DNA from: Actinomycetota bacterium
Lineage (GTDB): Bacteria; Actinomycetota; Coriobacteriia; Anaerosomatales; D1FN1-002
Direction: 5' to 3'
Length of the DNA: 64,000 nt
NCBI GenBank assembly: GCA_037445995.1
Contig: JBBIJK010000004.1
Span: forward strand, 30,451 to 94,450
Positions 2-38,865 of this stretch are shown piece after piece. Numbering within the stretch: position 1 is the stretch's first letter; every line of letters begins with the position of its first letter. The notes beneath the pieces were generated by a model that saw nothing but the letters and a program-made list of their open reading frames with translations, did no database searches and was not told the origin of the DNA. A program made the translations under genes and the position numbers.

Positions 2-448
2 CTGAAGCTCGAGCGGAACCCCGAGGACTCCGACGCGAGGCTGGAGCTGGCGAACATCTACTTCGACGTGCGGGACAGGACAGGCAGCCTGGACGCGGGT
101 CTGAAGGCCATCAAGCACTACGAACGCTACCTGTCCCGCCAGCCCGACGCGGTGAACGCCCGAGCCGACTACGCTGCCGTCCTGTTCTACACGGGCCAGA
201 CCGACGTGGCCATCCAGCAGATCAGCAAGGTCCTCGAGGCGGAGCCTCGGCACGTCAAGGCCAACTTCAACCTCGGCATCTTCTACTGGAAGGGCCGGGG
301 TGACCTCCGCGCGGCTCACGCGCAGTTCAAGAAGGTCGAAGAGGCCACGAAGGTGGGCGACCAGGTCACCCTCGGGATCAACGCCGAGGCGAAGACCAAC
401 GCCGCCGAGATAGAGAAGGAAGCCAAGGCGGCGGGGATCACGCTATGA
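2..448 (+). CDS. TPR-repeat protein, C-terminal part (5' end lies outside the window)
   Basis: Frame 2 is open from the first base (LKLERNPEDSDARLELANIYFDV...) into ORF 68..448. It has TPR-like helical repeats (NFNLGIFYWKGRGDLRAAHAQFKKV). The stop overlaps the trxB start (ATGA). Confidence 0.6.
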   Translation: MKLERNPEDSDARLELANIYFDVRDRTGSLDAGLKAIKHYERYLSRQPDAVNARADYAAVLFYTGQTDVAIQQISKVLEAEPRHVKANFNLGIFYWKGRGDLRAAHAQFKKVEEATKVGDQVTLGINAEAKTNAAEIEKEAKAAGITL

Positions 449-1425
449 GCGAAGCGGCTGCCGGAAGAGACGTCATCGACATCGCCATCATCGGCGCCGG
501 GCCTGCGGGCCTGACGGCGGCGCTGTACGCTTCACGTGCCCGCGCCAAGACCGTGGTGTTCGAGAAGGGCATACCCGGAGGCCAGATCGTCACCACGGAC
601 CACGTCGAGAACTACCCTGGGTTCCCCGGCGGGCTTTCGGGCGCGGAGCTCGGCGCGCTCATGACAAGGCAAGCCGAGGAGTTCGGCGCCGTCATCCGCA
701 CCTTCACCGACGTGTCGTCGGTCGAGCCCGCGGGGCTCGATTTCCTGCTGCGCACGGTCGACGGCGAGGAGTTCTTGGCCAGGGCGGTCATCCTGGCCAC
801 CGGCGCTGTGCCTCGCAAAATCGGCGTCCCCGGGGAGGCCGAGTACACCGGGCGAGGTGTCTCCTGGTGCGCGACGTGCGACGGCGCGCTCTTCCGCGAC
901 AAGGTGGTGGCGGTGATCGGAGGCGGCGACGCGGCCGTGGAGGAGGCTCTGTTCCTCACCAAGTTCGCCTCGCGGGTCCACATCGTCCACCGGCGGGACG
1001 AGCTTCGCGCGACCAAGTGCATCCAGGAGCGGTGCTTCGACAACCCGAAAGTGTCGTTAGAGTGGAGCAGGGTGGTAGCCTCCATCGAGGGGGACGGTGA
1101 GCGCGTCACGGGACTCGTGCTGGCCTCCACCAAGGGTGAGCCGGAGGTCGTCCTCCCGGTCGACGGGGTGTTCATCTTCGTGGGCGTCCATCCCGTGAGC
1201 GAGCTGGTGCGCGAGCTCGTGGCGTGCGACGATGCCGGCTACGTGCGGATCGACCACGACGGACGGACGGAGCAGCCGGGTATGTACGCAGCGGGCGACG
1301 TGACCGACTCCGAGCTCAAGCAGGTGGTGACCGCCGCCGCCAAGGGTGCGTCGGCAGCTTTCGAGGCGCTCCGCTACATTGATTCGAAGACGTGTGGTGT
1401 CCGGATGGAGGGAGAGGGAACGTGA
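445..1425 (+). CDS. trxB: Thioredoxin-disulfide reductase (FAD/NAD(P)-binding)
   Basis: 326 aa. GxGxxG dinucleotide motifs (IIGAGPAG, VIGGGDAAVEEA), the redox-active CATCDG motif, and a thioredoxin gene immediately downstream. Confidence 0.93.
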   Translation: MSEAAAGRDVIDIAIIGAGPAGLTAALYASRARAKTVVFEKGIPGGQIVTTDHVENYPGFPGGLSGAELGALMTRQAEEFGAVIRTFTDVSSVEPAGLDFLLRTVDGEEFLARAVILATGAVPRKIGVPGEAEYTGRGVSWCATCDGALFRDKVVAVIGGGDAAVEEALFLTKFASRVHIVHRRDELRATKCIQERCFDNPKVSLEWSRVVASIEGDGERVTGLVLASTKGEPEVVLPVDGVFIFVGVHPVSELVRELVACDDAGYVRIDHDGRTEQPGMYAAGDVTDSELKQVVTAAAKGASAAFEALRYIDSKTCGVRMEGEGT

Positions 1426-1751
1426 GCGAGAACATCATCGACGTAACCGACGCCAGCTTCGAGGAGGATGTGGTCGGCTCCAGCCTCCCCGTCGTCCTCG
1501 ACTTCTGGGCCCCTTGGTGCGGCCCGTGCCGCATGATGGAGCCCGTCCTCGAGGAGGTCGCAGCCGAGTACGCCGGCAAGCTCGTCGTCGGCAAGCTGAA
1601 CGTCGACGAGAACCCGCAGGTAGCCACCAGGTACGACATCCTGTCCATCCCCTCTCTCCTCGTTTTCGCGGACGGTCAGGTCGCCAAGAAGCTGGTGGGC
1701 GCGATGCCCAAGAAGCGGCTGCTCGAGGAACTGTCCGGCTTGGTCGGCTGA
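1422..1751 (+). CDS. trxA: Thioredoxin
   Basis: WAPWCGPCR active site. I place the start at GTG 1422, preceded by GGAGGGAGAGGGAA and overlapping the trxB stop, rather than at the ORF-track start 1392. Confidence 0.92.
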   Translation: MSENIIDVTDASFEEDVVGSSLPVVLDFWAPWCGPCRMMEPVLEEVAAEYAGKLVVGKLNVDENPQVATRYDILSIPSLLVFADGQVAKKLVGAMPKKRLLEELSGLVG

Positions 1752-2126: not shown

Positions 2127-2546
2127 GTGTCCGACTTGGTGCGGTTCGGTGTCGCGATGGAGCGCTCCCTGTTGGAGCGGTTCGACGAGCTGGTAAAGAG
2201 ACGCGGTACGGCCCGCAACCGCTCCGAGGCGGTGCGTGACCTGGTCAGAGACGCACTGGTCGACGCCGCGTGGGAGAGCTCGCACGAGGAGGCGGTAGGC
2301 ACCGTCACGATGGTGTTCGATCATCACGCCGCCGAACTTGCCGACAAGCTCGACTCGCTCCAGCACGCTCACCACGACCGGGTGGTCTCGACACTCCACG
2401 TCCACCTTGACGCCCACAACTGCCTCGAGGTGCTGGTCGTCCGGGGCCGGAGCAGCGAGATCCGAGCGATCGCCGACACGCTTCTAGGAACCAAGGGCGT
2501 CAAGCACGGGAAACTCGTGATGACCACGACGGGCCAAGGACTCTAG
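2127..2546 (+). CDS. nikR: Nickel-responsive transcriptional regulator NikR (ribbon-helix-helix + C-terminal metal-binding domain)
   Basis: N-terminal RHH ([19 protein letters not shown]...[12 protein letters not shown]) and a C-terminal His-rich ACT-like domain ([21 protein letters not shown]). GTG 2127 follows GGAGG (2117-2121). A Ni/Co ECF transporter lies immediately downstream. Confidence 0.85.
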
Positions 2547-2554
2547 GAGGAGAG

Positions 2555-3484: not shown

Positions 3485-3487
3485 GGC

Positions 3488-4354: not shown

Positions 4355-4369
4355 ACGGAGGCGACACAG

Positions 4370-5119
4370 ATGACGCATCTCCCTCCGGCCTTGGACGTGA
4401 GCGGACTGGAGCACAGGTATCCCGACGGGACCGAGGCCCTCGCGGGCGTGGACATGCGGGTCGACGCGGGCGAACGGGTCGCCCTGCTGGGCCCCAACGG
4501 CGCTGGCAAGTCCACCCTGATCCTGCACCTGAACGGGATCGTGTTGCCACAGGTCGGCTCGGTCACGGTGGAGGGCCGGCGGTTGTCCGCCGACACCGCC
4601 GGAGAGATCCGCGCTCGGGTGGGCCTGGTGTTCCAGGATCCCGACGACCAGCTCTTCATGACCACCGTGTACGACGATGTCGCGTTCGGACCGCTGAACA
4701 TGGGTCTTAGCCGTGAGGAAGTCGACGCGCGGGTACGCTTCGCCCTCGATGCCGTGGGGCTCACATCGGCGGCCAGCAAGCCAGGGGCGAACCTCTCGGT
4801 GGGGCAGCGAAGGAGAGCCGCCCTGGCCACGGTCATCGCGATGGGCCCGGCGATCCTAGTTCTCGACGAGCCGACCTCCAACCTCGACCCTCGGTCACGG
4901 CGCGAGATGGAGGCGCTGCTCGCTTCGCTGGAGGTGACCTTGATCGTGGCGACCCACGACATGGATGTCGCGTGGCGCCTGTGCGAACGCGCCGTGGTGC
5001 TGGACGCAGGCCGGGTGGTCGCCGACGGCGCCGTCCGGGACCTTCTCTCAGACGAGGCGCTGATGGTCGGACACGGGCTGGAGCTCCCGCCCGCAGTGGC
5101 GGCGCGGTCTTCGCTATGA
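4370..5119 (+). CDS. ECF transporter ATPase CbiO/NikO
   Basis: Walker A GPNGAGKST, signature LSVGQRRR, Walker B ILVLDEPTSNLD. Confidence 0.88.
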   Translation: MTHLPPALDVSGLEHRYPDGTEALAGVDMRVDAGERVALLGPNGAGKSTLILHLNGIVLPQVGSVTVEGRRLSADTAGEIRARVGLVFQDPDDQLFMTTVYDDVAFGPLNMGLSREEVDARVRFALDAVGLTSAASKPGANLSVGQRRRAALATVIAMGPAILVLDEPTSNLDPRSRREMEALLASLEVTLIVATHDMDVAWRLCERAVVLDAGRVVADGAVRDLLSDEALMVGHGLELPPAVAARSSL

Positions 5120-5126
5120 TCGCCAG

Positions 5127-5771
5127 ATGAAGCGCAACCAGCACAAGCATGTGGTCCATGACCCGGGTGCCCAAGGCGTGCCCGCGTACTTCGAATGCCC
5201 CGAGTGCGGCTTCCTCTCGGCCGACGAAGCGTTCGGACGCGGCGAGCGCGGATGCCCCGAGTGCGGCCGCAGCGGCTCCGCGCCTAGGGACTTCCCCACC
5301 GAGAGGCTCCGCCGGCTAGACGGCCGGATCCGCGGCTACTATGCCGAGGGCGAGTGGGAGGTCGTCGTCATCCTGGCCGAGACCTTCCTCGAAGCCATCC
5401 TCGAGGACATCATCGACCGCATCCTCGGGGCGCACGGCGCGGACGTCGCCGTGCGCTCGGTGGTGCTCGACGGGCAGCGCGCCATCGGGGCCCGGATCGG
5501 CAGGCTCTTCCCTCACCTCGTCGGCGAGGAGTTCGAGGAGGTCGCCCACGAGCTGGGGTACCGTGAGTTCCCGAGACGCTGGAGGCGACTGCGCGAGGCG
5601 CGCAACGCGTTCATCCACGACTCGCCCTTCCGCGGTCCGCAGGAGGCACTCGACGAGAGAACGGCCCGCGAGGCCATGGAGCTGCTCGATCAGGCGTACC
5701 GGCTGTTCGTCCTCATCAACAACCGCTTCGTGGCCGACGGGCGTCACCGCGCGCAGCAGGCGGGCGGATGA
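5127..5771 (+). CDS. Hypothetical protein: N-terminal Zn-ribbon (CPEC-X15-CPEC) + ~150-aa helical domain
   Basis: High GC3. The start is 8 nt after the nikO stop and the stop overlaps the hypF start (ATGA). The N-terminus is MKRNQHKHVVHD followed by two CPECG knuckles. Confidence 0.6.
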   Translation: MKRNQHKHVVHDPGAQGVPAYFECPECGFLSADEAFGRGERGCPECGRSGSAPRDFPTERLRRLDGRIRGYYAEGEWEVVVILAETFLEAILEDIIDRILGAHGADVAVRSVVLDGQRAIGARIGRLFPHLVGEEFEEVAHELGYREFPRRWRRLREARNAFIHDSPFRGPQEALDERTAREAMELLDQAYRLFVLINNRFVADGRHRAQQAGG

Positions 5772-8116
5772 GGGCGCTTCACGTCCATGTGACCGGCGTG
5801 GTCCAGGGCGTCGGATTCAGGCCCTTCGTCTACGACCTGGCGGTCAGGCTCGGCCTGCGCGGCTGGGTCCGCAACAGCTCGGAGGGCGTCTTCGCGGTCG
5901 TCGAGGGAGAGCCGGGCGCCCTCGAGGAGTTCGCTCGTCGCATACGCGACGACGCGCCCCCGATGGCCGTGGTGGACTCGGTGACCGCACGGGAGGTCGC
6001 GGTCCAGGGATTCGAAGCGTTCCGCATCGAGGAATCCGAGGTACTTGAGGGGGCGATGACCCTCGTCTCCCCCGACATCGCGACGTGCGATCCCTGCCTT
6101 CGGGAGATGCGGGACCCATCGGACCGACGCTACCGCTATCCCTTCGTGAACTGCACCAACTGCGGACCGCGGTTCACCATCATCGCCGACGTCCCGTACG
6201 ACCGTCCCTCCACCTCGATGAGGGATTTCCCGATGTGCGAGGAGTGCGGCCGCGAGTACGGCGACCCCTCGGACAGGCGCTTCCACGCGCAACCCGACGC
6301 CTGCTTCGTCTGCGGTCCTAGGCTGTACCTGAACCCCTCCAGCGCGGCTTCGGTCGCCATGGACGCCGATTGGGTCTGGAGCCCGGATAGGCAGACCGCT
6401 CCGCGGCTGCACCGGGACCTCCAGACCGAGCGGGCCCGCTCCGGCGGCATCATAGACCGGGCGGCGGAGCTCCTGGCGGACGGCGGGACGCTGGCCCTCA
6501 AAGGCCTGGGCGGCTTCCAGTTGGTCTGCGACGCCACCTCGGAGGCGGCCGTCGCACGCCTTCGCGGACGCAAGCGCCGCTGGGGCAAGCCGCTGGCCGT
6601 GATGGCCCAGGACCTCGAGGCGGCTCGTGCCCTGGCGCGAATCGACGACGCGGAGGCCGACCTGCTCGCCAGCACCGCGCGTCCTATCCTCCTCGCACGA
6701 CGCGGGGGGTCGGACGTCCTCGCGCCCTCGGTGGCGCCCGGGGTCGCGGAGATCGGGCTGATGCTCCCCTACACCCCGCTGCACCATCTGCTGCTCGAGG
6801 CGGTCGGGCGCCCCGTGGTCATGACCTCGGGCAACCTGTCCGACGAGCCCATCGCGACCGGCAACTCAGAAGCGCTCGAGCGTCTGGACCCCATCGCCGA
6901 CGCGTTCCTCCTTCACGACCGGGAGATCCTCTCCCGGTACGACGACTCGGTCACGCGGGTCGTGGGCGGGTCCTTCCAGTCCGTCCGGCGAGCGCGCGGG
7001 TACGCCCCGTTCCCGCTGCGCATGCCCGTCGGCAGCGACGTGGACATCCTCGCCGTCGGACCCGAACAGAAGAACACGTTCACTTTGGTCCGCGGTGACC
7101 TCGCTTTCGTCTCCCAGCACATCGGGGACATGGAGAACGCCCAGACCCTCGAAAGCTTCGAGGAGACCATTGCTCTGTACGAGAGGCTCTTCCGCGTCAC
7201 TCCGGGCCTGGTCGCGCACGATCTCCACCCCGAGTACCTCTCGACCAAGCACGCCATGCGCCTGGACCTGCCTCGCGTGGGCGTGCAGCACCATCACGCG
7301 CACATCGCGAGCGTCATGGCGGAGAACGACGTCCGAGAGCGTGTCGTGGGCGTCGCGTTCGACGGCACCGGCTACGGCGTCGACGGCACGATCTGGGGTG
7401 GAGAGGTCCTCCTCGCGGACACGGCGGGGTTCGAGCGCTTCGCGCACCTGCGGGCGGTCCCGATGCCCGGGGGTGTTGCCGCGATCCGCCGCCCCGCGCG
7501 CATGGCGGTCGGGACGCTGGCCTCGCTGGGGCTGCTGGAGCACCCCGGCGCGGCCACGCTCCGCGCGCGACTGGCCGAGGGCGAGGAGGAGATCGTGCTC
7601 CGGATGGTGGAGCGCGCCGTGAACACCCCGCTCACCTCGTCGATGGGGAGGCTGTTCGACGCTGTGTCCGCGCTCGCGGGGGTGCGCGACGACGCCCTGT
7701 ACGAAGGCCAGGCCGCGGTGGAGCTCGAGGCGATCGCCGACCTCGCGTCCGACGGCGCCTACCGGTTCGCGATGGACGGCGCTGGGCCCTTGGTGATCGA
7801 CCCCGCGCCGGTGCTGGAAGCCGCGTTGGACGACCTGGCACGCGGGGTGCAGCCGTCCATGGTGTCCGCCCGCTTCCACCGGGCGGTGGTGGATGCCGTG
7901 GTCCGGGTCGCGGCCTTGGCCGCGGACGCTGCGCACACCGCCGACGTGGCGCTCGCCGGAGGGGTGTTCATGAACCGGATCCTGCTCGAGGGTTCGATGG
8001 TCGCCCTTGGCGAGGCCGGGCTCACGCCCCTCGTCCATCGGGACCTGCCCTCCAACGACGCGGCCGTGTCCCATGGGCAGGCGTTCGTTGCGTGCTCGAA
8101 GCTTCTTGCGATATAA
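5768..8116 (+). CDS. hypF: [NiFe]-hydrogenase maturation carbamoyltransferase HypF
   Basis: 782 aa. Acylphosphatase-like N-terminus (VTGVVQGVGFRPFV), two Zn-finger pairs (CDPCLREM...NCTNCGPRFTI; CEECGREY...CFVCGPR), and YrdC-like and Kae1-like C-terminal domains. Confidence 0.95.
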   Translation: MRALHVHVTGVVQGVGFRPFVYDLAVRLGLRGWVRNSSEGVFAVVEGEPGALEEFARRIRDDAPPMAVVDSVTAREVAVQGFEAFRIEESEVLEGAMTLVSPDIATCDPCLREMRDPSDRRYRYPFVNCTNCGPRFTIIADVPYDRPSTSMRDFPMCEECGREYGDPSDRRFHAQPDACFVCGPRLYLNPSSAASVAMDADWVWSPDRQTAPRLHRDLQTERARSGGIIDRAAELLADGGTLALKGLGGFQLVCDATSEAAVARLRGRKRRWGKPLAVMAQDLEAARALARIDDAEADLLASTARPILLARRGGSDVLAPSVAPGVAEIGLMLPYTPLHHLLLEAVGRPVVMTSGNLSDEPIATGNSEALERLDPIADAFLLHDREILSRYDDSVTRVVGGSFQSVRRARGYAPFPLRMPVGSDVDILAVGPEQKNTFTLVRGDLAFVSQHIGDMENAQTLESFEETIALYERLFRVTPGLVAHDLHPEYLSTKHAMRLDLPRVGVQHHHAHIASVMAENDVRERVVGVAFDGTGYGVDGTIWGGEVLLADTAGFERFAHLRAVPMPGGVAAIRRPARMAVGTLASLGLLEHPGAATLRARLAEGEEEIVLRMVERAVNTPLTSSMGRLFDAVSALAGVRDDALYEGQAAVELEAIADLASDGAYRFAMDGAGPLVIDPAPVLEAALDDLARGVQPSMVSARFHRAVVDAVVRVAALAADAAHTADVALAGGVFMNRILLEGSMVALGEAGLTPLVHRDLPSNDAAVSHGQAFVACSKLLAI

Positions 8117-8149
8117 GCATCTGGCACCCTCACGGAGGAGGTCCCGACG

Positions 8150-8410
8150 ATGTGTCTAGCGATCCCGGCCAAGATAGTGTCCATCGGAGAGCTGAACATG
8201 GCCGAAGTGGACATCTTGGGCGTGTCACGCCACGTGAGCCTCGACATGACACCTGAAGCGAAAGTCGGCGAGTTCGTGCTGGTACACGCCGGCTTCTCCA
8301 TCCAGGTCGTGGACGAGGCCTACGCCCAGGAGACCCTTGAGACCCTCAAGCAGCTCGACATCGTCGGGGACGAGATCGGGCCCCCTGACGCCGCCGAGAG
8401 CGACGCGTGA
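8150..8410 (+). CDS. hypC: Hydrogenase assembly chaperone HypC/HupF
   Basis: MCLAIPAKIV N-terminus (essential Cys2), 86 aa, RBS GGAGGAGG upstream. Confidence 0.9.
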   Translation: MCLAIPAKIVSIGELNMAEVDILGVSRHVSLDMTPEAKVGEFVLVHAGFSIQVVDEAYAQETLETLKQLDIVGDEIGPPDAAESDA

Positions 8411-8414
8411 CGCG

Positions 8415-9509
8415 ATGGACCTCAACACCGGCTTCCGCGACCCCGAGGTAGCCAAGCGCCTCATCGACTCGATCGCCGCGACCTCCAGGACGCCCGTGAA
8501 GATCATGGAGGTGTGCGGGACCCACACCGTCGCCATCGCCAAGAACGGGCTGCGCGAGGTGATGCCCGATAGCATCACGCTGCTGTCCGGGCCCGGTTGC
8601 CCCGTCTGCGTCACCGCCAACCGTGACATCGACACCGCCATCGAGTTCGGTCGCGTGCCCGGAGTGGTGCTCGCGACCTTCGGCGACATGATGAAGGTCC
8701 CGGGGTCCTACAGCTCACTCGCGCGCGAGAAGGCCGACGGCAGGGACATCCGCGTCGTCTACTCCCCCCTCGACGCGCTGCGGATCGCGGCCGACGAGCC
8801 TGACAAGCAGGTGGTGTTCCTAGGCGTGGGCTTCGAGACCACCGCGCCGACGATCGCCTCGGTCATCCGCCAGGCCAAGCTCCAGGAAGTCGGCAACTTC
8901 TCCGTCCATTCCGTCCACAAGACCGTCCCGGAGGCTCTTCGCGCGCTGGTCAACGATCCCGAGGTCAAGGTCAACGCTTTCATCCTCCCCGGTCACGTCT
9001 CCGTGATCATCGGCCTTGAGCCCTATCGATTCCTCGCAAGCGAGTTCGGCGTCCCTTCTGTCATCACCGGGTTCGAGCCGGTGGACATCCTCCAGGGCAT
9101 CCACATGATCGTGCAGCAGTTCGAGTCAGGGCGCGCGGAGGTGGAGATCGCCTACAAGCGGAGCGTCGCCCCCGAGGGCAACCCTGCGGCGCTGGCCATC
9201 CTCGAGCAGGTCTTCGAACCGGCCGACGCCGACTGGCGCGGCATCGGCGTCATACCCGGCACCGGGCTGGCGATCCGCGAGGAGTACGCGGACCTCGACG
9301 CCGCCAAGCGCTTCCAGATCGATCCTCCGGAGGTCAAGGAGATCGCCGGCTGCCAGTGCGGCGACGTGCTCCGGGGAGTGGTCCTTCCCTTCGAGTGCAG
9401 GCTGTTCGCCAAATCGTGCACGCCAGAGCACCCGATCGGGCCGTGCATGGTCTCCTCGGAGGGGTCCTGCGCAGCCTACTACCGCTTCACCGACTACGGG
9501 CGATCCTGA
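8415..9509 (+). CDS. hypD: Hydrogenase maturation factor HypD
   Basis: CGTHT and GPGCPVCV motifs and a C-terminal Cys cluster. ATG 8415 is chosen because the ORF-track start 8337 would overlap hypC. Confidence 0.93.
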   Translation: MDLNTGFRDPEVAKRLIDSIAATSRTPVKIMEVCGTHTVAIAKNGLREVMPDSITLLSGPGCPVCVTANRDIDTAIEFGRVPGVVLATFGDMMKVPGSYSSLAREKADGRDIRVVYSPLDALRIAADEPDKQVVFLGVGFETTAPTIASVIRQAKLQEVGNFSVHSVHKTVPEALRALVNDPEVKVNAFILPGHVSVIIGLEPYRFLASEFGVPSVITGFEPVDILQGIHMIVQQFESGRAEVEIAYKRSVAPEGNPAALAILEQVFEPADADWRGIGVIPGTGLAIREEYADLDAAKRFQIDPPEVKEIAGCQCGDVLRGVVLPFECRLFAKSCTPEHPIGPCMVSSEGSCAAYYRFTDYGRS

Positions 9510-9550
9510 CGGCCCCGACCAGTCCCGCCGGCTTGGGAAAAGGAGTCAAC

Positions 9551-10558
9551 GTGCAGGACCGCATCCTTCTTGCTCACGGAAGCGGCGGGACGATGATGCG
9601 CGAGCTCATCGAGGAGCTGTTCGTCGCCGAGTTCGGCGACGAGGCCCTGCGCCGCATGGACGACGCTGCGTCATTCGAGCTCCCCGCTGGAAGGGCCGCG
9701 ATGTCCACCGACACGTACGTCGTCAGCCCGCTTTTCTTCCCTGGCGCCGACATCGGCAGGCTGGCCGTCTGCGGGACGGTGAACGACATCGCCACCTCCG
9801 GCGCCACGCCGATGTTCCTCTCGGTCGGATTCGTACTTGAAGAGGGGCTGCCCGTCGAGGACCTGCGGCGGATCGTGGTGTCGATGCGCGAGGCGGCCAG
9901 CGAAGCGGGGGTCCGAATCGTCACGGGCGACACCAAGGTCGTCGACAAGGGCCACGGCGACGGCGTGTACATCAACACAGCCGGCTTGGGAGTGATCCCC
10001 GACGGCATCGATCTCTCAGGCTCATACGCCAAGCCCGGCGACAAGATCTTGCTCTCGGGTACCCTTGGCGACCACGGCATCGCGGTCGTCTCCACCCGCG
10101 AGGGGCTGTCCTTCTCCACCGACATCCTCTCCGACGCGGCCCCACTCTCGGCGATGGTGGCGGCCGTGCTCGACGCCGCCCCCGACGCACGCTGCTTCCG
10201 GGACCCCACCAGGGGCGGGCTGTCGTCGGCCCTGAACGAGATCGCGTCGGCGTCCGGCGTTTGCGTCGTGGTCGACGAGGCATCCGTCCCCGTCCGGGAC
10301 CAGGTCAGGGGCGCGTGCGAGATGCTAGGGTACGACGTGTTCCACGTGGCCAACGAAGGCAAGATGCTCGCGGTCGTACCCGCGGACGGAGCCGACGCGG
10401 CCCTTGGGGCGATGCGCGGAGCACCCTACGGCGAAGACGCCCAGATCATCGGCGAGGTCATCGAGGGGACGGGCGGCAGGGTCTATGTCGACACCGTCTT
10501 CGGCGCCCGACGGATCATGGACATGCTCGTCGGAGAGCAGCTGCCGCGCATCTGCTGA
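9551..10558 (+). CDS. hypE: Hydrogenase maturation carbamoyl dehydratase HypE
   Basis: PurM/AIR-synthase-like fold sequence and a C-terminal ...PRIC. GTG 9551 follows AAAGGAG; the ORF-track start 9356 lies inside hypD. Confidence 0.93.
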   Translation: MQDRILLAHGSGGTMMRELIEELFVAEFGDEALRRMDDAASFELPAGRAAMSTDTYVVSPLFFPGADIGRLAVCGTVNDIATSGATPMFLSVGFVLEEGLPVEDLRRIVVSMREAASEAGVRIVTGDTKVVDKGHGDGVYINTAGLGVIPDGIDLSGSYAKPGDKILLSGTLGDHGIAVVSTREGLSFSTDILSDAAPLSAMVAAVLDAAPDARCFRDPTRGGLSSALNEIASASGVCVVVDEASVPVRDQVRGACEMLGYDVFHVANEGKMLAVVPADGADAALGAMRGAPYGEDAQIIGEVIEGTGGRVYVDTVFGARRIMDMLVGEQLPRIC

Positions 10559-18943: not shown

Positions 18944-19690
18944 TCAGCCAGCCAGGCGGCTGACCAGCAACCACGCGCCGACCGCCGCGAACAAGCCCGC
19001 GAGCAGGCCGCGGATGAGGCGCTCGTCGACACGGTGGGCGATGGCGGCCCCCGCCAACGCGCCCGGGAGCGTCCCGGCGGCAAGCGGTCCGGCTAACGCC
19101 CAGGAGATCTCGCCGACCCATGCGTGCATCAACGCCGACGGCGCCGCGAGGAACGGGATCGCCGCGAGACTGGTGCCCACCGCGCGGCCGGTTGGCATCC
19201 CGAGGAAGCGTCTGAAGACCGGGACCATCAGGAAGCCGCCACCCACCCCGACCAGTCCCGCGATCAGGCCGGCCGCCGCGCCGGCCGCGGCTGGCGCGGC
19301 GAGCTTGAGGGGCCCCTTGGACGCCGCGGACGGCGGGCGTTCCAGGGCCGTCATCGAGACCGCCGACCAGAGCAGGACGACCCCCAGAGCGAGGGCAACA
19401 ACGTCGTCACCCAATCGGTCCCCGAGCAACGAACCGACGGCGCCGGTACCCGACCCCGACAACCCGGCGATACACGCCACCCGGACGTCTACCTTCCCGG
19501 CGCGATGATGGGCCAGCGCGCCGGCCAACGCGGCTGGCAGCACGGCCGCGAGCGAGGTGCCCACCGCCGCAAGCGCACCGAGTCCGATACCGAGATAAAG
19601 GGCCGGGGTGAGGACGATCCCGCCGCCAATCCCCAGCATCCCCGACAGCACGCCGGCCAAGACGCCGAGGGCGACGACGCCGACCGCCAT
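18944..19690 (-). CDS. TauE/SafE (TSUP) family anion permease
   Basis: 248 aa with repeated GxGGG motifs (GMLGIGGGIV, GLVGVGGGFL), 7-8 TM. Confidence 0.8.
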   Translation of the reverse strand: MAVGVVALGVLAGVLSGMLGIGGGIVLTPALYLGIGLGALAAVGTSLAAVLPAALAGALAHHRAGKVDVRVACIAGLSGSGTGAVGSLLGDRLGDDVVALALGVVLLWSAVSMTALERPPSAASKGPLKLAAPAAAGAAAGLIAGLVGVGGGFLMVPVFRRFLGMPTGRAVGTSLAAIPFLAAPSALMHAWVGEISWALAGPLAAGTLPGALAGAAIAHRVDERLIRGLLAGLFAAVGAWLLVSRLAG

Positions 19691-19694
19691 CGCC

Positions 19695-20936
19695 TCAGCC
19701 GGAGCCGACGGGCGGGAACCGGCCGGTGATCGCCGACCGGTCCACGCTGCGCTCTCCGGTGAACAGCGTCTTGAGGGGCACGTCGTCCCAGACGCGCTCC
19801 ATCATGATCGGCCACCGCCGCTGGAACTCGAAGTAGTTGTCGCAGTTGCGCGTCGCGTACCTGGGCGCGTCTTTGCGGACCGCCTTGGCCACCTTGCGGT
19901 AGGTCTGGCGCTCAGCGCCCGCCGACAGGCTCCTGAGCATCGCGGTGACCCAGGCGCGCCACCCGACGGAGCCGCCTATGAACTCGCCCGGGAAGGGCGC
20001 CACGGACTCAGGGGAGACGGGACGGAGGTCCACCTGGGACTTCGCGAACTCCAGCTTCCGGTGCTCGTAGATGAACCTGTAGGCGTCCTGGCGAAGGCGT
20101 ATGGCCTCGCTGGGGCCGATCGGCGGCCTGTGGACCACCCTCCAGTCTCCGTCCATGAACACGTCGCCGCCGTGCATTCGCACGTTGATGACGTAGTCGA
20201 TGTCCTCGCCCCTCGTGACCCAAGGGTCGAACGACACGCTGCGGTACATGTCTTTGTGGATCACGAGGCAGCCGCCGAAGGCCACGTTGCTCGGCTTGAT
20301 CCTCGGGGGGGCGTCGACCACGGCGAGCGCCTGGTTGTACGCGTCGGCGGTGTGCCAGAAGGTGTTGGACCAGTGCGGGTCCTGGTGGACCTGGTACCGG
20401 CCATCCTCGTTGACGTAGTAGCCGGTCTTGGCCAGGATCCGGCCGTCCCCGTGCCGCTCCCCGACGCCGGCCATCGCTCTTTCAAGGAAGTCCGGGTCGG
20501 CGATCACCTGGTCGTCGTCCACGAACAGGACCGACTCCGACCCCAGCACCGCGGCGGTGAGAAGGCCGACGTTGCGGACCGCGCCGTAGCCGTGGAGCGA
20601 GACACCCGGGATCATGTCCGCGAACTCCAGTTGCTCGAGGCGACGGTGAAGCGACCCGATCTCCGCGGCCCCGAAGACAAGGGCGTCTATCTGCGGGAAG
20701 TCGGCTACCATCTCGCGGACGCGATCCTCCGCCTGGTGCTCGATGGAGGGCTCGGTGGCCGCGGTGAGGACCACGACCCGCTCGAGCCCGGGCAGCCCCG
20801 CGAGAGACCGCAGGCAATCAGGCAGGGTGCTCTCGCCGTCGATCGGCGTCGGATGGTCGTAGACGTCCAGCAGACGCCTGCCCAGCCGCGCCCGCCGCCT
20901 GGTCCAGAATGTAGAGATCACCACGCAGGGCGCCAA
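19695..20936 (-). CDS. GT-A fold (family-2-like) glycosyltransferase with C-terminal extension
   Basis: ...YGAVRNVGLL..., FVDDDQV (DxD), ...GGCLVIHKDMY..., ...GEDIDYVINV.... TTG start 20936 after GAGGAG. 4-nt gap to the TauE gene. Confidence 0.55.
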   Translation of the reverse strand: MAPCVVISTFWTRRRARLGRRLLDVYDHPTPIDGESTLPDCLRSLAGLPGLERVVVLTAATEPSIEHQAEDRVREMVADFPQIDALVFGAAEIGSLHRRLEQLEFADMIPGVSLHGYGAVRNVGLLTAAVLGSESVLFVDDDQVIADPDFLERAMAGVGERHGDGRILAKTGYYVNEDGRYQVHQDPHWSNTFWHTADAYNQALAVVDAPPRIKPSNVAFGGCLVIHKDMYRSVSFDPWVTRGEDIDYVINVRMHGGDVFMDGDWRVVHRPPIGPSEAIRLRQDAYRFIYEHRKLEFAKSQVDLRPVSPESVAPFPGEFIGGSVGWRAWVTAMLRSLSAGAERQTYRKVAKAVRKDAPRYATRNCDNYFEFQRRWPIMMERVWDDVPLKTLFTGERSVDRSAITGRFPPVGSG

Positions 20937-21014
20937 TTGGACTCCTCACAAGTGCCATCCGGTCAGGGCCGCGCCCGCGCGCGGGCCGGACCCACGACAT
21001 TCTATCGCTTCAAC

Positions 21015-21032
21015 GCGGCTGGCAGCAGCCGC
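21015..21032 (-). terminator. Hairpin terminating the queT-to-dsbA-like unit
   Basis: GCGGCUG-cugc-CAGCCGC, a 7-bp perfect stem starting 8 nt after the stop at 21040. No strong U-tract. Confidence 0.45.
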
Positions 21033-21039
21033 TCCCGTC

Positions 21040-21726
21040 TCACTGCTTCGGTCCGTCAGACGCCGCGCCGCGACCCGTGTCGCCCGGGGCGGCGACGCAG
21101 CGGTCCACGGCCGCCTGCATCACCTCGTAGGGACGGGCGCCGATGAGGAGCTCGTTGCAGATGACGGCCGCGGGCGTGGCGTCGATCCCCATGTGTTCCG
21201 CCACGTGGCGAAACACTTCGAGCCGCTCCTCGTGAAGACCGCCGACCCACGCCGCCTCGACCGCTGCGGCGTCCAGGCCTTCCAGGCCCTTCGCCAGCCC
21301 GAGGAGGACCTCACGGTCCCCGATGTCCGCCCCGTCGGCGTAGTAGGCGCTGAAGATCGCCATGTGGGTCGCCCAGTGGAGTGCCGACCCGCCATCCCTC
21401 GCGACCTCGCCCATGAGAAGCGCCAGGTGCGTGTTGGGGATGTGATCGGGGAGCGTCATCTTCACCCCCTCGTCCGCAGCCACACGGACCAGGTGCCCCT
21501 CGACCCTGTCGGAGTGCCCGAGGCCGTGCTCGACGGCGGAGAAGCCCTCGGCTGGCATACCAGGCCTGAGCTCGAACGGCACGAGCAGGAGCTCGAGGTC
21601 GTTCGCTGCCCGCAACCTGTCGAACCGGAACTGGTCGACGTAGCAGAAGGGTCAAGCGTAGTCGAAGAAGAGCAGCACCCTGGGCCGGTCGATCGACGCG
21701 CCGCTCGGACTCGCGTGAAGATCCAT
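21040..21726 (-). CDS. DsbA/FrnE-family thiol-disulfide oxidoreductase, candidate selenoprotein (in-frame TGA 21652..21654 read as Sec; U-P-F-C redox motif)
   Basis: ATG 21726 (AGGGAG 7 nt upstream) reads MDLHASPSGASIDRPRVLLFFDYA-TGA-PFCYVDQFRFDRLRAAN... It continues in frame into ORF-track ORF 21040..21615. The TGA replaces the first Cys of the DsbA CxxC motif, and a SECIS-like hairpin follows. Confidence 0.7.
21619..21639 (-). promoter_or_regulatory. Putative bacterial SECIS element
   Basis: Hairpin GUCGACC-AGUUCC-GGUUCGAC starting 12 nt after the UGA: 7 bp with one bulged U on the 3' arm and a 6-nt apical loop with G at position 2. Confidence 0.55.
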
Positions 21727-21730
21727 GTCC

Positions 21731-22741
21731 CTACTCCCTGATCCCGAGATCCGCGCCGCAGGCCGAGCAGATCCCGCCCGAGGTCCGCTTCGCAACCACC
21801 GAGTACCCGCGCCGCGTCACGGCCGTGGCCCCGCACGATGGACAAACCGTGTCCTCGAACCCACCGTCCGCCACATTCCCAAGGTACACGAAGCGCAACC
21901 CCTCACCTGTGGCGAGCTCCCGCGCCCGCCATAGGGTCTCGAACGGGGTCGCGGGTACGTGCGCCATGTCCAGGCACGGAAAGAACCTGGTGACGTGCCA
22001 CGGGGTGTCCTCCCCCAAAGCGTCCCTTATCCAGCCGGCGATGCCGCGGATCTCCGCTTCGCCATCGTTGATGCCAGGGACGACATTGGTGACGACCTCC
22101 ACGTGCATACCCCAGTGGTGCTTCGCGCGGACCGCCGCATCCAGCACCGGCCGCGCCGACGGCACCTTGCACAGCTCGTGGTAGCCTCGGTCGTCGAAAG
22201 CCTTGACGTCGACGCGCCAGACGTCCACCAGGGGACCGAGCAGGTCCAGAGCCTCGGGCGTGACGTATCCGTTCGTTACCATGACGGTGAAGAGGCCCTC
22301 ACCGCGGCAGATGGTGGCGACATCCAGCACGTACTCGAGCCAGATCACAGGCTCGTTGTAGGTGAAAGCCACGCCCGGGCATCGGTGCGCCCTCGCCAAG
22401 CGGACGGCGCCGTCGGGGTCCATGTGCCCGGCGTCCGGCACGTCTCCGGGGGCCGCTCGGCTGATCGACCAGTTCTGACAGTGACCGCACCTCATCGAGC
22501 AGCCCACGCTGCCTAGCGACAGCACCCGTGCTCCTGGGTGGTAGTGGAATACCGGCTTCTTCTCTATCGGGTCCGCCGCCACCGACGTGACGAGGCCGTA
22601 GGACAGGGGCTCCAGGACCCCGCCGGAGTTGCGCCTGACCCCACATCGGCCGACGTGCCCGTCAGCGATCAGGCAGCGGTGCGGGCAGACGGCGCATCTG
22701 ACCTTGCCAGCCTCGCCGGACCACAGCAGCGCCTCACGCAC
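21731..22741 (-). CDS. Radical SAM enzyme, AmmeMemoRadiSam/PflA-like activase type
   Basis: N-terminal Cys cluster (RCAVCPHRCLIADGHVGRCGVRRN), DPIEKKP, the CSMRCGHCQNW CxxxCxxC SAM cluster motif, and a C-terminal Zn-ribbon (CPSCG...CSACG). Confidence 0.85.
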   Translation of the reverse strand: MREALLWSGEAGKVRCAVCPHRCLIADGHVGRCGVRRNSGGVLEPLSYGLVTSVAADPIEKKPVFHYHPGARVLSLGSVGCSMRCGHCQNWSISRAAPGDVPDAGHMDPDGAVRLARAHRCPGVAFTYNEPVIWLEYVLDVATICRGEGLFTVMVTNGYVTPEALDLLGPLVDVWRVDVKAFDDRGYHELCKVPSARPVLDAAVRAKHHWGMHVEVVTNVVPGINDGEAEIRGIAGWIRDALGEDTPWHVTRFFPCLDMAHVPATPFETLWRARELATGEGLRFVYLGNVADGGFEDTVCPSCGATAVTRRGYSVVAKRTSGGICSACGADLGIRE

Positions 22742-22749
22742 ACGTCCCC

Positions 22750-24582
22750 CTAATCCGGCGCGATCTCCACCCTGTCTCGCCCGTTCTCCTTCGCGCGATA
22801 AAGGGCCCTGTCAGCGGCCTCCAGCAGGCGGTCCGGCTCGACCCCGGCACCAGAGATGGCGGAGACGCCGACGGAGAGGGTGACCCGCGACACTCCGTCC
22901 GCCCCGCTGCCCCCGACACTGATCGCCCGAACCGCGCTCCTCAGCTTCTCGGCCACCGCGAACGCGGCCGTCTTGCCTATCCCGGGAAGGAGCACCCCGA
23001 ACTCATCCCCCCCATACCTTGAGGGGAGGTCGGTCCCTCTGAGCACCTTGGGGATGATCGCTCCGATGGACCGCAACACCGAGTCGCCGACCCGGTGGCC
23101 ATACGTGTCGTTGATCCCCTTGAACGCGTCCACGTCGACCATGAGCAGCGAGAGCTCTCCACCGTAGCGGTTGACCCGCTCGACCTCCTCCCTGAGCCGC
23201 GCCTCGAACTCACGGCGGTTCGGCAGCCCTGTCAGCGGGTCGGTGGTGGCGGCCTCCGCGAGCGCCGCGAGGCTAGCCTCCAGGCGCTCGGCTTGGCGAG
23301 GCCAGCACATGTCCCACGTCGACCTGCCCTGCGCGATCGCGACAGCGTGATCGGCGCAGGTTCTCTGGCCGCACGCGCCGCAGTCCAAGGCCTCATCCCG
23401 GGACGCCACGCCGCCCTCCGCGAGGATACGGTCGACCTCCTCAGGCGAAGGAACGACCGTCATCACCGGCGAAGCCGTGAACGAGCGGCGAAGGTCCGGC
23501 CGGGGGAGATAGGCCAAGAGGCGTCGGCATCCCACCGACGCCGCGGACCTCGACGCCTCGCCGTGGGCGACCGCGATGGTGCGCTTGGCGTGCACCGATA
23601 GCTGTGGGGCCACAGTGGGGCCGTCGATACACCCGTCGCAGTGCAACGTGTCGACCAGCGACGGGGCAGCCTCGCCGTCTGCGATGGCGTCCAAGAGGCG
23701 GTCGAGTGGCTCCAGACCGCGCACCACGGCCGTGTCCACCCGCGAGTCCCCCCCGCACTCCACGAACGAGCGCGGAAACCCGTCCGTCAGCGACACCTCC
23801 TTGAGCGGCGCGGGCCGGCGAGCGCCAGGCGGCTCGACGCCGGGCGCGAGCGGCGGCGCGTCCGCCAGGAGTTCCTCGAGCTCAGCGAAGTCGATCGCGG
23901 CGTCGACCGCGCCCCCGTACTGCGGATCGGAGCAGTCGTCCTTGCGGGCGAAGCACGGACTCACGTACACGACGACCGTGCCTTCGGGATAGAGCGACTT
24001 CACGAGCTTGGCTTGCGCGATGTAAGGGGGGACCAGGGGCACGAGGGCGCCGGTCAGCTTGGGGTGGAAGCGAAGGACCCACGACACGACCACCGGGCAT
24101 GTCGACCTGATGGCGGGCATGTGCTCCCGGCCCACCACCAGACGCTCGAACTCGGATGCGACCATCTCCTCGCCGAGCAAGGTGGTCTCGACGGCGTGGA
24201 AGCCCATCGCCTCGAGCGCGCACTCTAAGTCGCGTGTCGTCTTGGGATGCAGAGCTGCGACCGCCTCCGTCGCGAGGACGGCGACCACCGGTCCGCCGCC
24301 GTGGAGCAGCGCCCGGACCGCGGCGGTGTCATCCCTGACCACATGGCCGCGAAAGCCGCACTCCTTGACGCACGCCCCGCAGGAAACGCATCTCTCGTGG
24401 ATCACGAGCGTCCCGGCCTCGGAGACGCCGATCGCGCCGGCGGGGCAAACCCGGACGCAGCCACGGCATCGACGGCAGTCGTCCTCCTGGTGCTGTATCA
24501 GCCGGCGGCCGACATGCCTGCGCGTCGACCCGGACCGGGACACCGGCTCCGAATCACCCCAAGGCAGCGGCTCGCTGCTCAC
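22750..24582 (-). CDS. Fusion protein: 2x[4Fe-4S] ferredoxin + [FeFe]-hydrogenase-like (H-cluster/Nar1-type) domain + CxxCGxxxC Fe-S domain + GGDEF diguanylate cyclase
   Basis: CRRCRGCVRVCP / CVSCGACVKEC ferredoxin motifs. H-domain motif equivalents are RSTCPVVVSW (L1), VSPCFARKDD (L2) and LHCDGCIDGP (L3), followed by DCGACGQRTCADHA. The C-terminal GGDEF has RYGGDEFGVLL. GTG start overlaps the queT-like stop (GTGA). Confidence 0.8.
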   Translation of the reverse strand: MSSEPLPWGDSEPVSRSGSTRRHVGRRLIQHQEDDCRRCRGCVRVCPAGAIGVSEAGTLVIHERCVSCGACVKECGFRGHVVRDDTAAVRALLHGGGPVVAVLATEAVAALHPKTTRDLECALEAMGFHAVETTLLGEEMVASEFERLVVGREHMPAIRSTCPVVVSWVLRFHPKLTGALVPLVPPYIAQAKLVKSLYPEGTVVVYVSPCFARKDDCSDPQYGGAVDAAIDFAELEELLADAPPLAPGVEPPGARRPAPLKEVSLTDGFPRSFVECGGDSRVDTAVVRGLEPLDRLLDAIADGEAAPSLVDTLHCDGCIDGPTVAPQLSVHAKRTIAVAHGEASRSAASVGCRRLLAYLPRPDLRRSFTASPVMTVVPSPEEVDRILAEGGVASRDEALDCGACGQRTCADHAVAIAQGRSTWDMCWPRQAERLEASLAALAEAATTDPLTGLPNRREFEARLREEVERVNRYGGELSLLMVDVDAFKGINDTYGHRVGDSVLRSIGAIIPKVLRGTDLPSRYGGDEFGVLLPGIGKTAAFAVAEKLRSAVRAISVGGSGADGVSRVTLSVGVSAISGAGVEPDRLLEAADRALYRAKENGRDRVEIAPD

Positions 24583-25145
24583 CCGTCCCTCGACATCCCC
24601 TCGAACACCCCGGCCAAGCCGGTGCGACGCATCGCCGCGAGCAGCGGCCAGCCCAATCCGTAGACGACGAGAACCTGACCCGCGCCTACAGCGGCCATGC
24701 CGAGAAGGTACATCGCGAACCAGGAGTCCTCAAGCCTCCAGCCAAGCGCCGGTATGTCGTAAAAGCCGCTGCCAGCCAGGATAAGGGGCAGGTACGCTGG
24801 CACTATCAGGGCGTTGGCCACGACCGGCCCGGCGAGCGCCACGCCCGTGCGGCCTCGCATCCGCCAGCTCCAGGCGGCGCCCGCCAGCGACCCGAGCGGG
24901 CCGAAGACCATGTCCAGCCAGCCCATGGGCTGCGAGAGGTTCCACGCGTTGGCTATCAGCGCCCCGAGCCACAGCCCGGGGATCGCGGCGGGCGTCACGC
25001 ACCCCAGCACTGTGAGCGCCTCGCTGATCCGAAGCTGGACGGGCCCCCAGGCCAGGGCCTGGAACGTGGAGAGCGTGAGAAGCGTGGCGGCGGCGTAGAG
25101 GGCCGCGATCACTCCGGCCTGTGCGACGAGACGTGAGGCGCGCAA
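24579..25145 (-). CDS. QueT-family (ECF S-component-like) membrane transporter
   Basis: 188 aa, about 5-6 TM. AALYAAATLL...GPVQLRISEALTVL...IPGLWLGALIAN matches QueT-family hallmarks as I remember them. TTG start after GGAGA. Confidence 0.7.
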   Translation of the reverse strand: MRASRLVAQAGVIAALYAAATLLTLSTFQALAWGPVQLRISEALTVLGCVTPAAIPGLWLGALIANAWNLSQPMGWLDMVFGPLGSLAGAAWSWRMRGRTGVALAGPVVANALIVPAYLPLILAGSGFYDIPALGWRLEDSWFAMYLLGMAAVGAGQVLVVYGLGWPLLAAMRRTGLAGVFEGMSRDG

Positions 25146-25181
25146 GGTCTGTCTCCGGGGAACGGCTGGGCGGGCGGGCGC

Positions 25182-25193
25182 ATTCTAGCACAC
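25182..25193 (-). promoter_or_regulatory. Extended -10 promoter element (GTG-c-TAGAAT) upstream of the queT-like gene
   Basis: Minus strand reads TGTGTGCTAGAATG about 37 nt upstream of the TTG start. The perfect palindrome GGCTCCGGAGCC (25195-25206) lies just upstream in the spacer/-35 region. Confidence 0.4.
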
Positions 25194-37430: not shown

Positions 37431-37560
37431 CGCTCGCGGTCGGCAGGCGCCCCCGGACGAGCCCCGAGCACCCGGCAGAGGACGCTTATGGCTGCTTCCT
37501 CCCGGATCTGACCAGGTTCACGACTTACCGCCGCCCGGGGCCCGACCGGGAGCGCCTCGC
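37431..37560 (-). ncRNA. ffs: Signal recognition particle RNA (4.5S/SRP RNA); boundaries approximate
   Basis: Minus strand contains CCUGGUCAGAUCCGGGAGGAAGCAGCC (cf. E. coli 4.5S ACCAGGUCAGGUCCGGAAGGAAGCAGCC) with a GNRA tetraloop GGGA. Closing helices are GCCCCGGGC/GCUCGGGGC and CGCUCCCGGUCGG/CCGACCGCGAGCG. It occupies the classic position upstream of dnaX. Confidence 0.8.
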
Positions 37561-37575: not shown

Positions 37576-37716
37576 CCTCGCGAAGGACGCGATTCGGGGA
37601 TAATCAAGCCATGACACGCTGCGGAGACCACGTGATCGCGCTCACCGCCGCAGCCGCCGTGTCGATTCGCGCCGGCACCTCCGAGAGGTGGCCGGACGGC
37701 AAGGGGGGTGCGCTCC

Positions 37717-38865
37717 ATGGATCTCCTCACCGTCGAAGCGCTGCGCGAACTGGTGCGAGGCTGCGGGGGCGAACACGTGTCCCTGTTCATGCCCACTCAC
37801 GGCGCAGCGCCGGACAACCGCAAGGACCCGCTGCAGTTCCGCGCGCTCCTGCGCCAGGCGGAGGGCGCCCTGATCGCCCGGGGGAAACGTCTGGCTGAAG
37901 CGGGCAGGCTGCTGTCTCCGGCGCACGAGCTTGCCGAGGACGGCATAATCTGGCGCCCGCACCCAGGCGGGCTTGCCGCGTTCGTCTGCGATGACGGCAT
38001 GCGGGTGTACAGGTCCCCGGTCCGCCTCGAACCCGCAGTCAGGGTGGGCGACCGGTTCTCCATCCGTCCGGCGCTGGCCGCGGCGGATCGCGGCGAACGC
38101 TTCTTCGTGCTCGCGCTCTCACAGAACTCGGTGAGGCTGTTCAGGGGCACGCGCGACGGGCTCACCGAGCTCGACCTTGGTGATCTGCCGCAAGACATCC
38201 TCGACGCCTTGCGGATCGATGGCTTCGAGCAGCAGCTCCAGTCCCACAGCAGCTCGAGCGGACCGGCCCCCGGGAAAGGCCGCGGGGCGGTGGTCTTCCA
38301 CGGGTCCGGGGCGGACACCGGGGTGACGACCCGCTACCTGACCGAGTTCGTCAAGCGCATCGCGGCTGGCCTGTTCGACCTCGTGCACGACCGCGAGGCG
38401 CCCTTCGTGGTCGCGGCGGTGGCGGAGCTCGCGGCGATGTACCGCGAGGCCGACCGCACGCACAACGTGACCGAGGCCTTTGTCGCGGGCAACCCGGAGG
38501 CCACCTCGCAGACGGACCTGCACGCGGCCGCGTGGAACGCGGCCCGCCGAGCGTTCGAAGCGGAGCTGGCCGCGATCGAGGAGCGCTTCGGCGAGTCGCT
38601 GGGGACCTCGCACGCCTCGTCAGACCCGGCGGAGATAGTCGCGGCGGCCGCATTCGGCCGCGTGGAGACACTGCTCGTGTCGTCTGGCGCGACTCTCCGG
38701 GGCCGGTTCGATGAGGACTCCGGCCGCGTCGAGATCCTGGACGATCCGGAGCAGGGCGGCGAGGACCTCGTGGAGTTGGCGATCGCGCACACCATCGCGC
38801 GCTCCGGTGACGTCCATCTCAGCGAGCGCGGGCCGCATGGCCTGGGCGCCCTGCTGCGCTACTAG
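37717..38865 (+). CDS. Hypothetical protein, possibly eRF1/Pelota-like (baeRF-type) fold
   Basis: 382 aa. The N-terminus ...HVSLFMPTHGAAPDNRKDPLQFRALLRQAEG... and central ...GRGAVVFHGSGAD... resemble bacterial eRF1-like families as I recall them. The assignment is from memory only. ATG 37717 follows AAGGGGGG. Confidence 0.45.
   Translation: MDLLTVEALRELVRGCGGEHVSLFMPTHGAAPDNRKDPLQFRALLRQAEGALIARGKRLAEAGRLLSPAHELAEDGIIWRPHPGGLAAFVCDDGMRVYRSPVRLEPAVRVGDRFSIRPALAAADRGERFFVLALSQNSVRLFRGTRDGLTELDLGDLPQDILDALRIDGFEQQLQSHSSSSGPAPGKGRGAVVFHGSGADTGVTTRYLTEFVKRIAAGLFDLVHDREAPFVVAAVAELAAMYREADRTHNVTEAFVAGNPEATSQTDLHAAAWNAARRAFEAELAAIEERFGESLGTSHASSDPAEIVAAAAFGRVETLLVSSGATLRGRFDEDSGRVEILDDPEQGGEDLVELAIAHTIARSGDVHLSERGPHGLGALLRY

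Follow-up and report, generated by a model that had tools for sequence, protein, structure and literature searches.

The stretch of DNA analysed here, called the window throughout, is 64,000 nt long (positions 30,451 to 94,450 of contig JBBIJK010000004.1) and makes up about two-thirds of one 98 kb contig of a metagenome-assembled genome (MAG) from an Actinomycetota bacterium of the Anaerosomatales (GCA_037445995.1). On its minus strand lies a gene for a DsbA-like oxidoreductase in which an in-frame TGA stands in the place of the first cysteine (Cys) of the active site. This gene very probably encodes a selenoprotein, with the TGA read as selenocysteine (Sec, U) through a hairpin just downstream, a predicted selenocysteine insertion sequence (SECIS). 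The reading frame runs from an ATG at 21726-21724 to a stop at 21040 and contains 228 codons (229 counting the stop), of which the TGA is codon 25 (Table 1). The gene upstream ends in a TAG at 21733-21731, leaving 4 nt between that stop and the ATG. A program-made list of open reading frames (ORFs) opens the gene at the TTG at 21615, and the public NCBI protein for this locus (P0001, 172 amino acids) starts later still. The same loss of the active site was found in the public calls for orthologues, such as P0085 (209 amino acids) and P0025 (180 amino acids), and every public call checked for a TGA-bearing member of the group is truncated. Apart from the TGA, the gene carries no disabling mutation. 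The positions given for the TGA, the ATG, the Shine-Dalgarno sequence, the TTG start and the hairpin in a preliminary description of this DNA, made from the sequence alone, all agreed with the sequence on checking.

Table 1. Features of the DsbA-like gene, its neighbourhood and a candidate reductant system, in window coordinates (SAM, S-adenosylmethionine; GT2, glycosyltransferase family 2; pS, synonymous divergence)
Feature	Position	Strand	Evidence
Full-length gene of the predicted selenoprotein, FrnE-type DsbA-like oxidoreductase with U-P-F-C motif	21040..21726	-	Translation, Pfam, alignment with 28 homologues, PDB match
Predicted Sec-encoding UGA at first Cys of CPFC	21652..21654	-	TGA in 24 distinct orthologues, TGC/TGT in 31
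Codon of putative resolving Cys, C28 of UxxC	21643..21645	-	Invariant in all homologues
Putative bacterial SECIS core hairpin, GUCGACC-AGUUCC-GG(U)UCGAC	21619..21639	-	RNAalifold consensus, compensatory pairs, low pS
Possible extended stem round the core hairpin, window sequence only, -12.3 kcal/mol	21610..21646	-	Local fold enumeration
Shine-Dalgarno-like AGGGAG, 7 nt 5' of ATG 21726	21734..21739	-	Direct reading; overlaps the end of the upstream gene
AmmeMemoRadiSam-type radical SAM enzyme, upstream gene	21731..22741	-	NCBIfam TIGR04337, 304.5 bits (cutoff 220)
FeFe-hydrogenase-like/Fe-S/GGDEF fusion, two genes upstream	22750..24582	-	Pfam Fe_hyd_lg_C and GGDEF; synteny conserved
Conserved 413-amino-acid protein, no curated family	19695..20936	-	Pfam Glyco_tranf_2_3, 24.2 bits, below cutoff (weak GT2-like); synteny conserved
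TauE/SafE-family permease, last gene of the block	18944..19690	-	Pfam PF01925, E=6.5e-48
Thioredoxin reductase and thioredoxin, candidate reductant (inferred link)	445..1751	+	Pfam Pyr_redox_2, Thioredoxin

With Cys put in place of the internal stop, the translation matches the Pfam family DSBA (PF01323) over residues 17-207, corresponding to profile positions 2-190 of 191 (E=1e-21; 77.9 bits against a cutoff of 25.6). The TGA thus lies within the homologous region, and the score exceeds the PF01323 gathering score, as expected of DsbA-like selenoprotein form 1. Homologues in the databases, mostly 220-250 amino acids long and from MAGs of Coriobacteriia, Anaerosomatales and Actinomycetota, share the motif PRVLxFFDYACPFCYVDQFRF, in which the TGA column is the first Cys of CPFC, within FFDYACPFCYVDQFRF of the full-length homologues. 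The best PDB match by sequence is FrnE of Deinococcus radiodurans (E=1.5e-10), which aligns over its full length and sets its CPWC against the (U)PFC of the window protein. An AlphaFold (AF2) model was built for a Cys-containing orthologue, P0002, with a predicted local distance difference test score (pLDDT) of 93.7. In this model a strand at residues 16-21 is followed by helix 1 from residue 26 with the motif at the helix start, so that U25-P-F-C28 takes the N-terminus of helix 1, as expected of DsbA-like selenoprotein form 1. Foldseek with the same model returned FrnE (template modelling score, TM, 0.76) and SCO1869 as the best PDB matches, and FrnE, with its fold and CP(W/F)C active site, is thus the closest match both by sequence and by structure. 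The preliminary description had proposed that the UGA stands for the nucleophilic first Cys of the CxxC in a DsbA/FrnE-family protein, and the Pfam match, the homologue alignment and the FrnE match all bear this out. A search of NCBIfam found no model that covers this subfamily; its sole match, NF041057 (Rcas_1661 family thioredoxin-like (seleno)lipoprotein), scored 28.6 bits against a cutoff of 190 and involved the C-terminal half only. Two further Cys residues, C190 (in CNELLIG) and C210 (in RC), do not vary in any of the 36 aligned orthologues and could serve as a further redox pair, form a structural disulfide or bind a metal.

The orthologues were gathered by scanning metagenome contigs for the pattern and one genome per species with the protein as guide, followed by scripted extraction. 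Three truncated database homologues were traced back to their contigs, and all three read FDYA-TGA-PFCY. Across the set, the same codon is TGA in 24 distinct orthologues and TGC or TGT in 31 others, with TGA present in 14 of about 47 species-level genomes, these 14 being Coriobacteriia/Anaerosomatales-type MAGs. As the correspondence between TGA and Cys recurs in 24 distinct orthologues, it is not a chance alignment, and the comparison with Cys-containing homologues called for in the preliminary description places the UGA and the Cys in one column. Sec and Cys forms are intermingled on a neighbour-joining tree, so several switches between the two are implied. One locus, L162 (CAWKMJ010000001.1), has frameshifts and stops in several genes of the neighbourhood described below; these are probably long-read assembly errors and account for its long branch on the tree.

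The hairpin downstream of the TGA consists of 7 bp with one bulged U and a 6-nt loop, AGUUCC, in which a G at position 2 is followed by U; its local energy is -8.7 kcal/mol and the spacing from the UGA to the loop is 19 nt. The published model of bacterial SECIS elements (bSECIS) describes a loop of 3-9 nt, a stem of 4-16 bp, a G in the first two loop positions (usually as G[G/U]), and a UGA-loop distance of 16-37 nt with a minimum free energy (MFE) of -7.5 kcal/mol or lower (PMC13188914, Fig. 2). In loop, stem, G followed by U, spacing and energy, the window hairpin resembles this model and falls within all four of its criteria. In addition, RNAalifold applied independently to the 24 Sec forms returned exactly the window hairpin, which is present in 24/24, and the fit to published bacterial SECIS geometry claimed in the preliminary description was upheld on both counts. 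The possible extension of the lower stem was not recovered as an RNAalifold consensus across orthologues.

The support for this putative SECIS element comes from comparative data. In the Sec-form alignment 94.6% of the stem cells are paired, and sliding the partners lowers this to 14-58%. Compensatory substitution has turned pair 16-36 from G-C into A-U in L041 and L042, and pair 18-34 from C-G into G-C in L135 and L144. The loop nucleotides G24 and U25 and the xGG arginine (Arg) codon are invariant in the Sec forms only. In the Cys forms these positions code mainly for QH, WP, QS and the like, Arg is also written CGC, CGT and AGA, and the hairpin often cannot form at all. Synonymous change is also reduced where the hairpin lies, with a pS of 0.24 in codons +5 to +11 of the Sec forms versus 0.54 in the same codons of the Cys forms and 0.55-0.67 in flanking codons.

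Two Cys forms, L134 and L136, keep a complete hairpin with a GU loop (GUSGACCAGUUCMGGUUCGAC) in codons +5 to +11 after a TGC. These retained hairpins are consistent with recent replacement of Sec by Cys and resemble the fossil SECIS elements that Zhang et al. reported (PMC1794560). The pattern scan also yielded at least five other DsbA-like clades with U-P-F-C-Y among metagenome loci L005-L121 (for example L006, L005, L023, L059 and L024): a marine clade with VGLGRLD, a soil clade with VGLARAEW, and clades with IGKGIVD, VGERRLAR and VATVGG. Each has a hairpin of its own that starts about 13-16 nt 3' of the UGA, and that of the marine clade, GUCGGCCU-GGGC-AGGC(U)CGAC, has the register and the 3' bulged U of the window hairpin.

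Several results weigh against Sec decoding at this UGA. Folded singly, the 71-nt region 21590-21660 was no more stable than its shuffles (MFE z=0.09), and the global MFE structure of a 50-nt segment did not contain the hairpin. Among 300 random TGA triplets in this window of 69% GC, 69% were followed by a hairpin compatible with the model and 24% by one at least as good. From these three results it follows that a fold of the single sequence means little, and it was rejected as evidence. The covariation in the stem is modest, amounting to 4 cells in 2 pairs, and the Rfam covariance models gave no SECIS match in 21500-21760 even at E values up to 10. Neither the window nor the 1.4 Mb of fetched loci yielded selA, selB, selD or tRNA-Sec, and a second selenoprotein gene was not detected in the window.

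The search for Sec machinery combined several approaches. With the SelA, SelB and SelD proteins of E. coli as queries, tblastn against the window and all fetched loci gave a single, SelD-like match, an AIR-synthase-family gene resembling HypE (9659-10492) that lies inside a HypFCDE cluster. ARAGORN predicted zero tRNAs in the window and no tRNA-Sec in the fetched loci, Pfam annotation of nearly all window ORFs revealed no SelA, SelB or SelD, and the 4 kb past the window start, reached via the thioredoxin reductase gene, held nothing relevant. As for further selenoproteins, a scan of the window based on GC content at third codon positions (GC3) returned ordinary gene ends only, and an all-against-all scan of the 1.4 Mb for paired Cys and TGA codons found the DsbA gene again and nothing else of this kind. 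The other matches of that scan were discarded as shadow-frame noise typical of GC-rich DNA, and the in-frame stops seen in conserved neighbouring genes were likewise set aside as Sec codons, being gene ends or frameshifts in one error-prone MAG.

The alternative that survives best is that the UGA is recoded with the same hairpin but to something other than Sec, either to Cys through a SelB-like or tRNA(ReC)-type system or by near-cognate read-through. Some bacteria possess Cys-recoding tRNAs, nothing found here tells which amino acid is inserted, and the failure to see Sec machinery in the window and fetched loci speaks in favour of such a system. On the other hand, the family has repeatedly been classed as a Sec family with Cys homologues, the Sec trait is documented in Coriobacteriia, and alternation of Sec and Cys together with a hairpin bearing a G[U/G] loop is the canonical signature of Sec, so that we regard recoding to another residue as very unlikely. 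TGA is the stop codon of 32 of the 47 confident window genes, and UGA is therefore not reassigned in this organism.

A second alternative takes the UGA as a true stop, in agreement with the output of the ORF callers. The product would then start downstream, at TTG 21615 or at the ATG chosen by NCBI, without the CxxC, and the upstream 24 codons would be a leader peptide or untranslated. The orthologues, however, conserve the residues PRVLxFFDYA ahead of the TGA as protein in Sec and Cys forms alike. In the 10 codons 5' of the TGA, the Sec forms have a pS of 0.53, a nonsynonymous divergence (pN) of 0.11 and a pN/pS of 0.21, which is near the 0.13 of the Cys forms and indicates that this stretch is under purifying selection at the protein level; downstream of the TGA, pN/pS ranges from 0.03 to 0.46. 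The UGA thus stands opposite a conserved catalytic Cys and is itself conserved with coding conservation on both sides, as is expected of a Sec UGA. A product begun downstream would also be without strand 1 and the start of the active-site helix of the thioredoxin fold, the start sites of the truncated calls differ, so that no downstream start is conserved, and the ATG with its Shine-Dalgarno sequence sits directly behind the upstream gene, 4 nt past its end. Termination at this codon is extremely unlikely on this evidence.

The last alternative supposes a pseudogene, or a TGC/TGT that was mutated or was misread in sequencing or assembly, so that no full-length protein is made. It would suit the truncated public calls (P0001 and P0085) and the lack of Sec machinery seen in the window, but we give it next to no credence and consider it refuted for practical purposes by the conservation data, as the same TGA occurs in 24 distinct orthologues of 50-65% amino-acid identity from unrelated samples and assemblers, with purifying selection 5' of it and no other disabling mutations. 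A Logan re-assembly of SRR11582157 (L173) is identical across the region, TGA included, and a second MAG (L174, GCA_964592805.1), with 231 mismatches in 20.5 kb (98.9% identity), keeps the TGA as well, so the TGA is not an assembly artefact. The preliminary description had stated that its proposal would fall if the upstream 24 codons were not conserved as coding in orthologues or if the TGA proved to be an assembly error. Neither is the case, since the orthologues conserve these codons as coding and the TGA is reproduced in the second MAG and the re-assembly.

The analysis itself demonstrates homology across the TGA, alternation of Sec and Cys codons, coding-type conservation on both sides of the UGA and conservation of the hairpin. 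With this comparative evidence, the gene is best explained, with high probability, as encoding a cytoplasmic FrnE-type DsbA-like thiol-disulfide oxidoreductase with Sec at position 25, whose UGA would be decoded via a SelB-recognised hairpin and in which Cys28 would be the resolving residue. Sec insertion, SelB binding, substrate and reductant all belong to a mechanism that we infer. In it, the hairpin at 21639-21619, with its GU in a 6-nt loop 19 nt past the UGA, would recruit SelB with GTP and Sec-tRNA(Sec), and the UGA would then be read as Sec and not as a stop. The selenolate of U25 would attack a substrate disulfide or other oxidised sulfur, and Cys28 would resolve the mixed intermediate to give a selenenylsulfide. 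Re-reduction would fall to a cellular reductant, plausibly the thioredoxin system (candidate genes are listed in Table 1) or a low-molecular-weight thiol, the latter being considered because a glutathione-synthetase-like ATP-grasp gene lies at 47072-48130 in the window.

The DsbA gene belongs to a strictly conserved block (18944-25184 on the minus strand) found in about 55 loci, for example L122-L172, in which TauE is followed by a LytS/LytTR two-component pair. Every locus, with Sec or with Cys in the DsbA gene, shows one gene order: QueT, the FeFe-hydrogenase-like/GGDEF protein, the radical SAM enzyme, DsbA, the 413-amino-acid protein and a LytS-type kinase. In the called-gene tables of L001, L002, L173 and L174, TauE stands between the 413-amino-acid protein and the kinase. 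The 413-amino-acid protein has no NCBIfam match. The fusion protein two genes upstream of DsbA has 610 amino acids and combines 4Fe-4S ferredoxin-like domains, an FeFe-hydrogenase large-subunit C-terminal domain and a GGDEF diguanylate cyclase, and it looks like a hydrogenase-like redox sensor with cyclic di-GMP output.

The radical SAM gene adjoins the DsbA gene in all loci examined, and the two are probably co-translated. No AMMECR1 or Memo domain was detected among the window ORFs scanned, and the radical SAM enzyme therefore appears without the usual partners of its family. It is conceivable, although doubtful, that DsbA, in its Sec or Cys form, is a dedicated redox partner within this uncharacterised block of Anaerosomatales-type Coriobacteriia, whose selenolate would reduce or isomerise a sulfur-containing product or cofactor of the coupled radical SAM enzyme, rather than a general disulfide reductase. 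All of the evidence for such a specific partnership lies in the conserved adjacency and the 4-nt gene spacing.

Elsewhere in the window, a nickel and hydrogenase-maturation cluster occupies 2067-10500 on the plus strand, with NikR, CbiM/Q/O-type transporter genes, HypF, HypC, HypD and the HypE-like gene; the window showed no recognisable structural gene for a hydrogenase. An eRF1-like paralogue at 37636-38865 (plus strand), matching bacterial archaeo-eukaryotic release factor (baeRF) families 3, 7 and 6 (E=1.5e-31), adjoins the signal recognition particle (SRP) RNA at 37452-37547 and dnaX-ybaB-recR. Genes for polyphosphate kinase 1 and 2 lie within 10 kb of each other, at 39364-41811 and 48949-49881, both on the minus strand.

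DsbA-like selenoproteins (COG2761, UxxC) were first reported in 2005, when nine sequences were found in the Sargasso Sea metagenome (PMC1088965), and were described in 2006 from Anaeromyxobacter, Desulfovibrio and Desulfotomaculum (PMC1794560). A survey in 2016 counted 45 genes in 41 organisms (PMC5029168), and a 2026 review lists the family as "DsbA-like protein form 1, PF01323, UxxC" (PMC13188914). The Sec-decoding trait is likewise recorded in cultured Coriobacteriia, namely Eggerthella lenta, Slackia heliotrinireducens (7 selenoproteins) and Coriobacteriaceae JC110 (supplement of PMC5029168). There is nothing new in the family itself or in its occurrence in Coriobacteriia. The preliminary description was right that the family was already known, as the literature from 2005 onward attests; in presenting this instance as noteworthy it went too far, given the 41 organisms with UxxC DsbA-like selenoproteins counted in 2016 and the Sec trait already documented in Coriobacteriia. 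What is new is limited to a well-defined orthologous group in Anaerosomatales-type MAGs, with truncated public calls for its TGA forms, no NCBIfam model and an uncharacterised fixed neighbourhood. Public gene callers have almost certainly truncated a real selenoprotein gene here, and the worth of the finding is that of an annotation fix and not of a discovery; general knowledge of selenoproteins is unchanged by it. The alignment of 24 sequences, covering both SECIS and protein, could seed an NCBIfam model with which annotation pipelines would call the Sec codon. The group offers a clean natural series in which one enzyme, always in the same gene context, has Sec or Cys, with some Cys forms still bearing the hairpin; it should be useful for the study of Sec-to-Cys replacement and of SelB recognition in Actinomycetota.

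Compared with known systems, the window protein is like DsbA-like selenoprotein form 1 in its Pfam domain, its U-x-x-C motif with the predicted Sec at the first Cys, its widespread Cys homologues and a SECIS-type hairpin just 3' of the UGA. It is unlike the other form 1 members in belonging to a distinct orthologous group confined to Anaerosomatales/Coriobacteriia-type MAGs, with a SECIS sequence of its own, GUCGACC-AGUUCC-GGUUCGAC, and a fixed gene neighbourhood. The SECIS of E. coli fdhF has a functionally important bulged U on the 5' side, whereas the single-nucleotide bulge of the window hairpin is on the 3' side. The closest relative of solved structure is FrnE of D. radiodurans (DR_0659; PDB 5CNW and 5CO3), whose CP(W/F)C site occupies the equivalent position; both proteins lack an obvious signal peptide. 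FrnE is a cytoplasmic disulfide reductase/isomerase whose active site is regenerated by a C-terminal CxxxxC tail, and some of its homologues are likewise without this tail (PMC8945050). At about 26% identity, the window protein is unlike FrnE, which has Cys in its active site and the CxxxxC tail, in having the predicted Sec, in lacking the tail (its C-terminus, ...DRCVAAPGDTGRGAASDGPKQ, contains a single Cys) and in carrying C190 and C210 instead.

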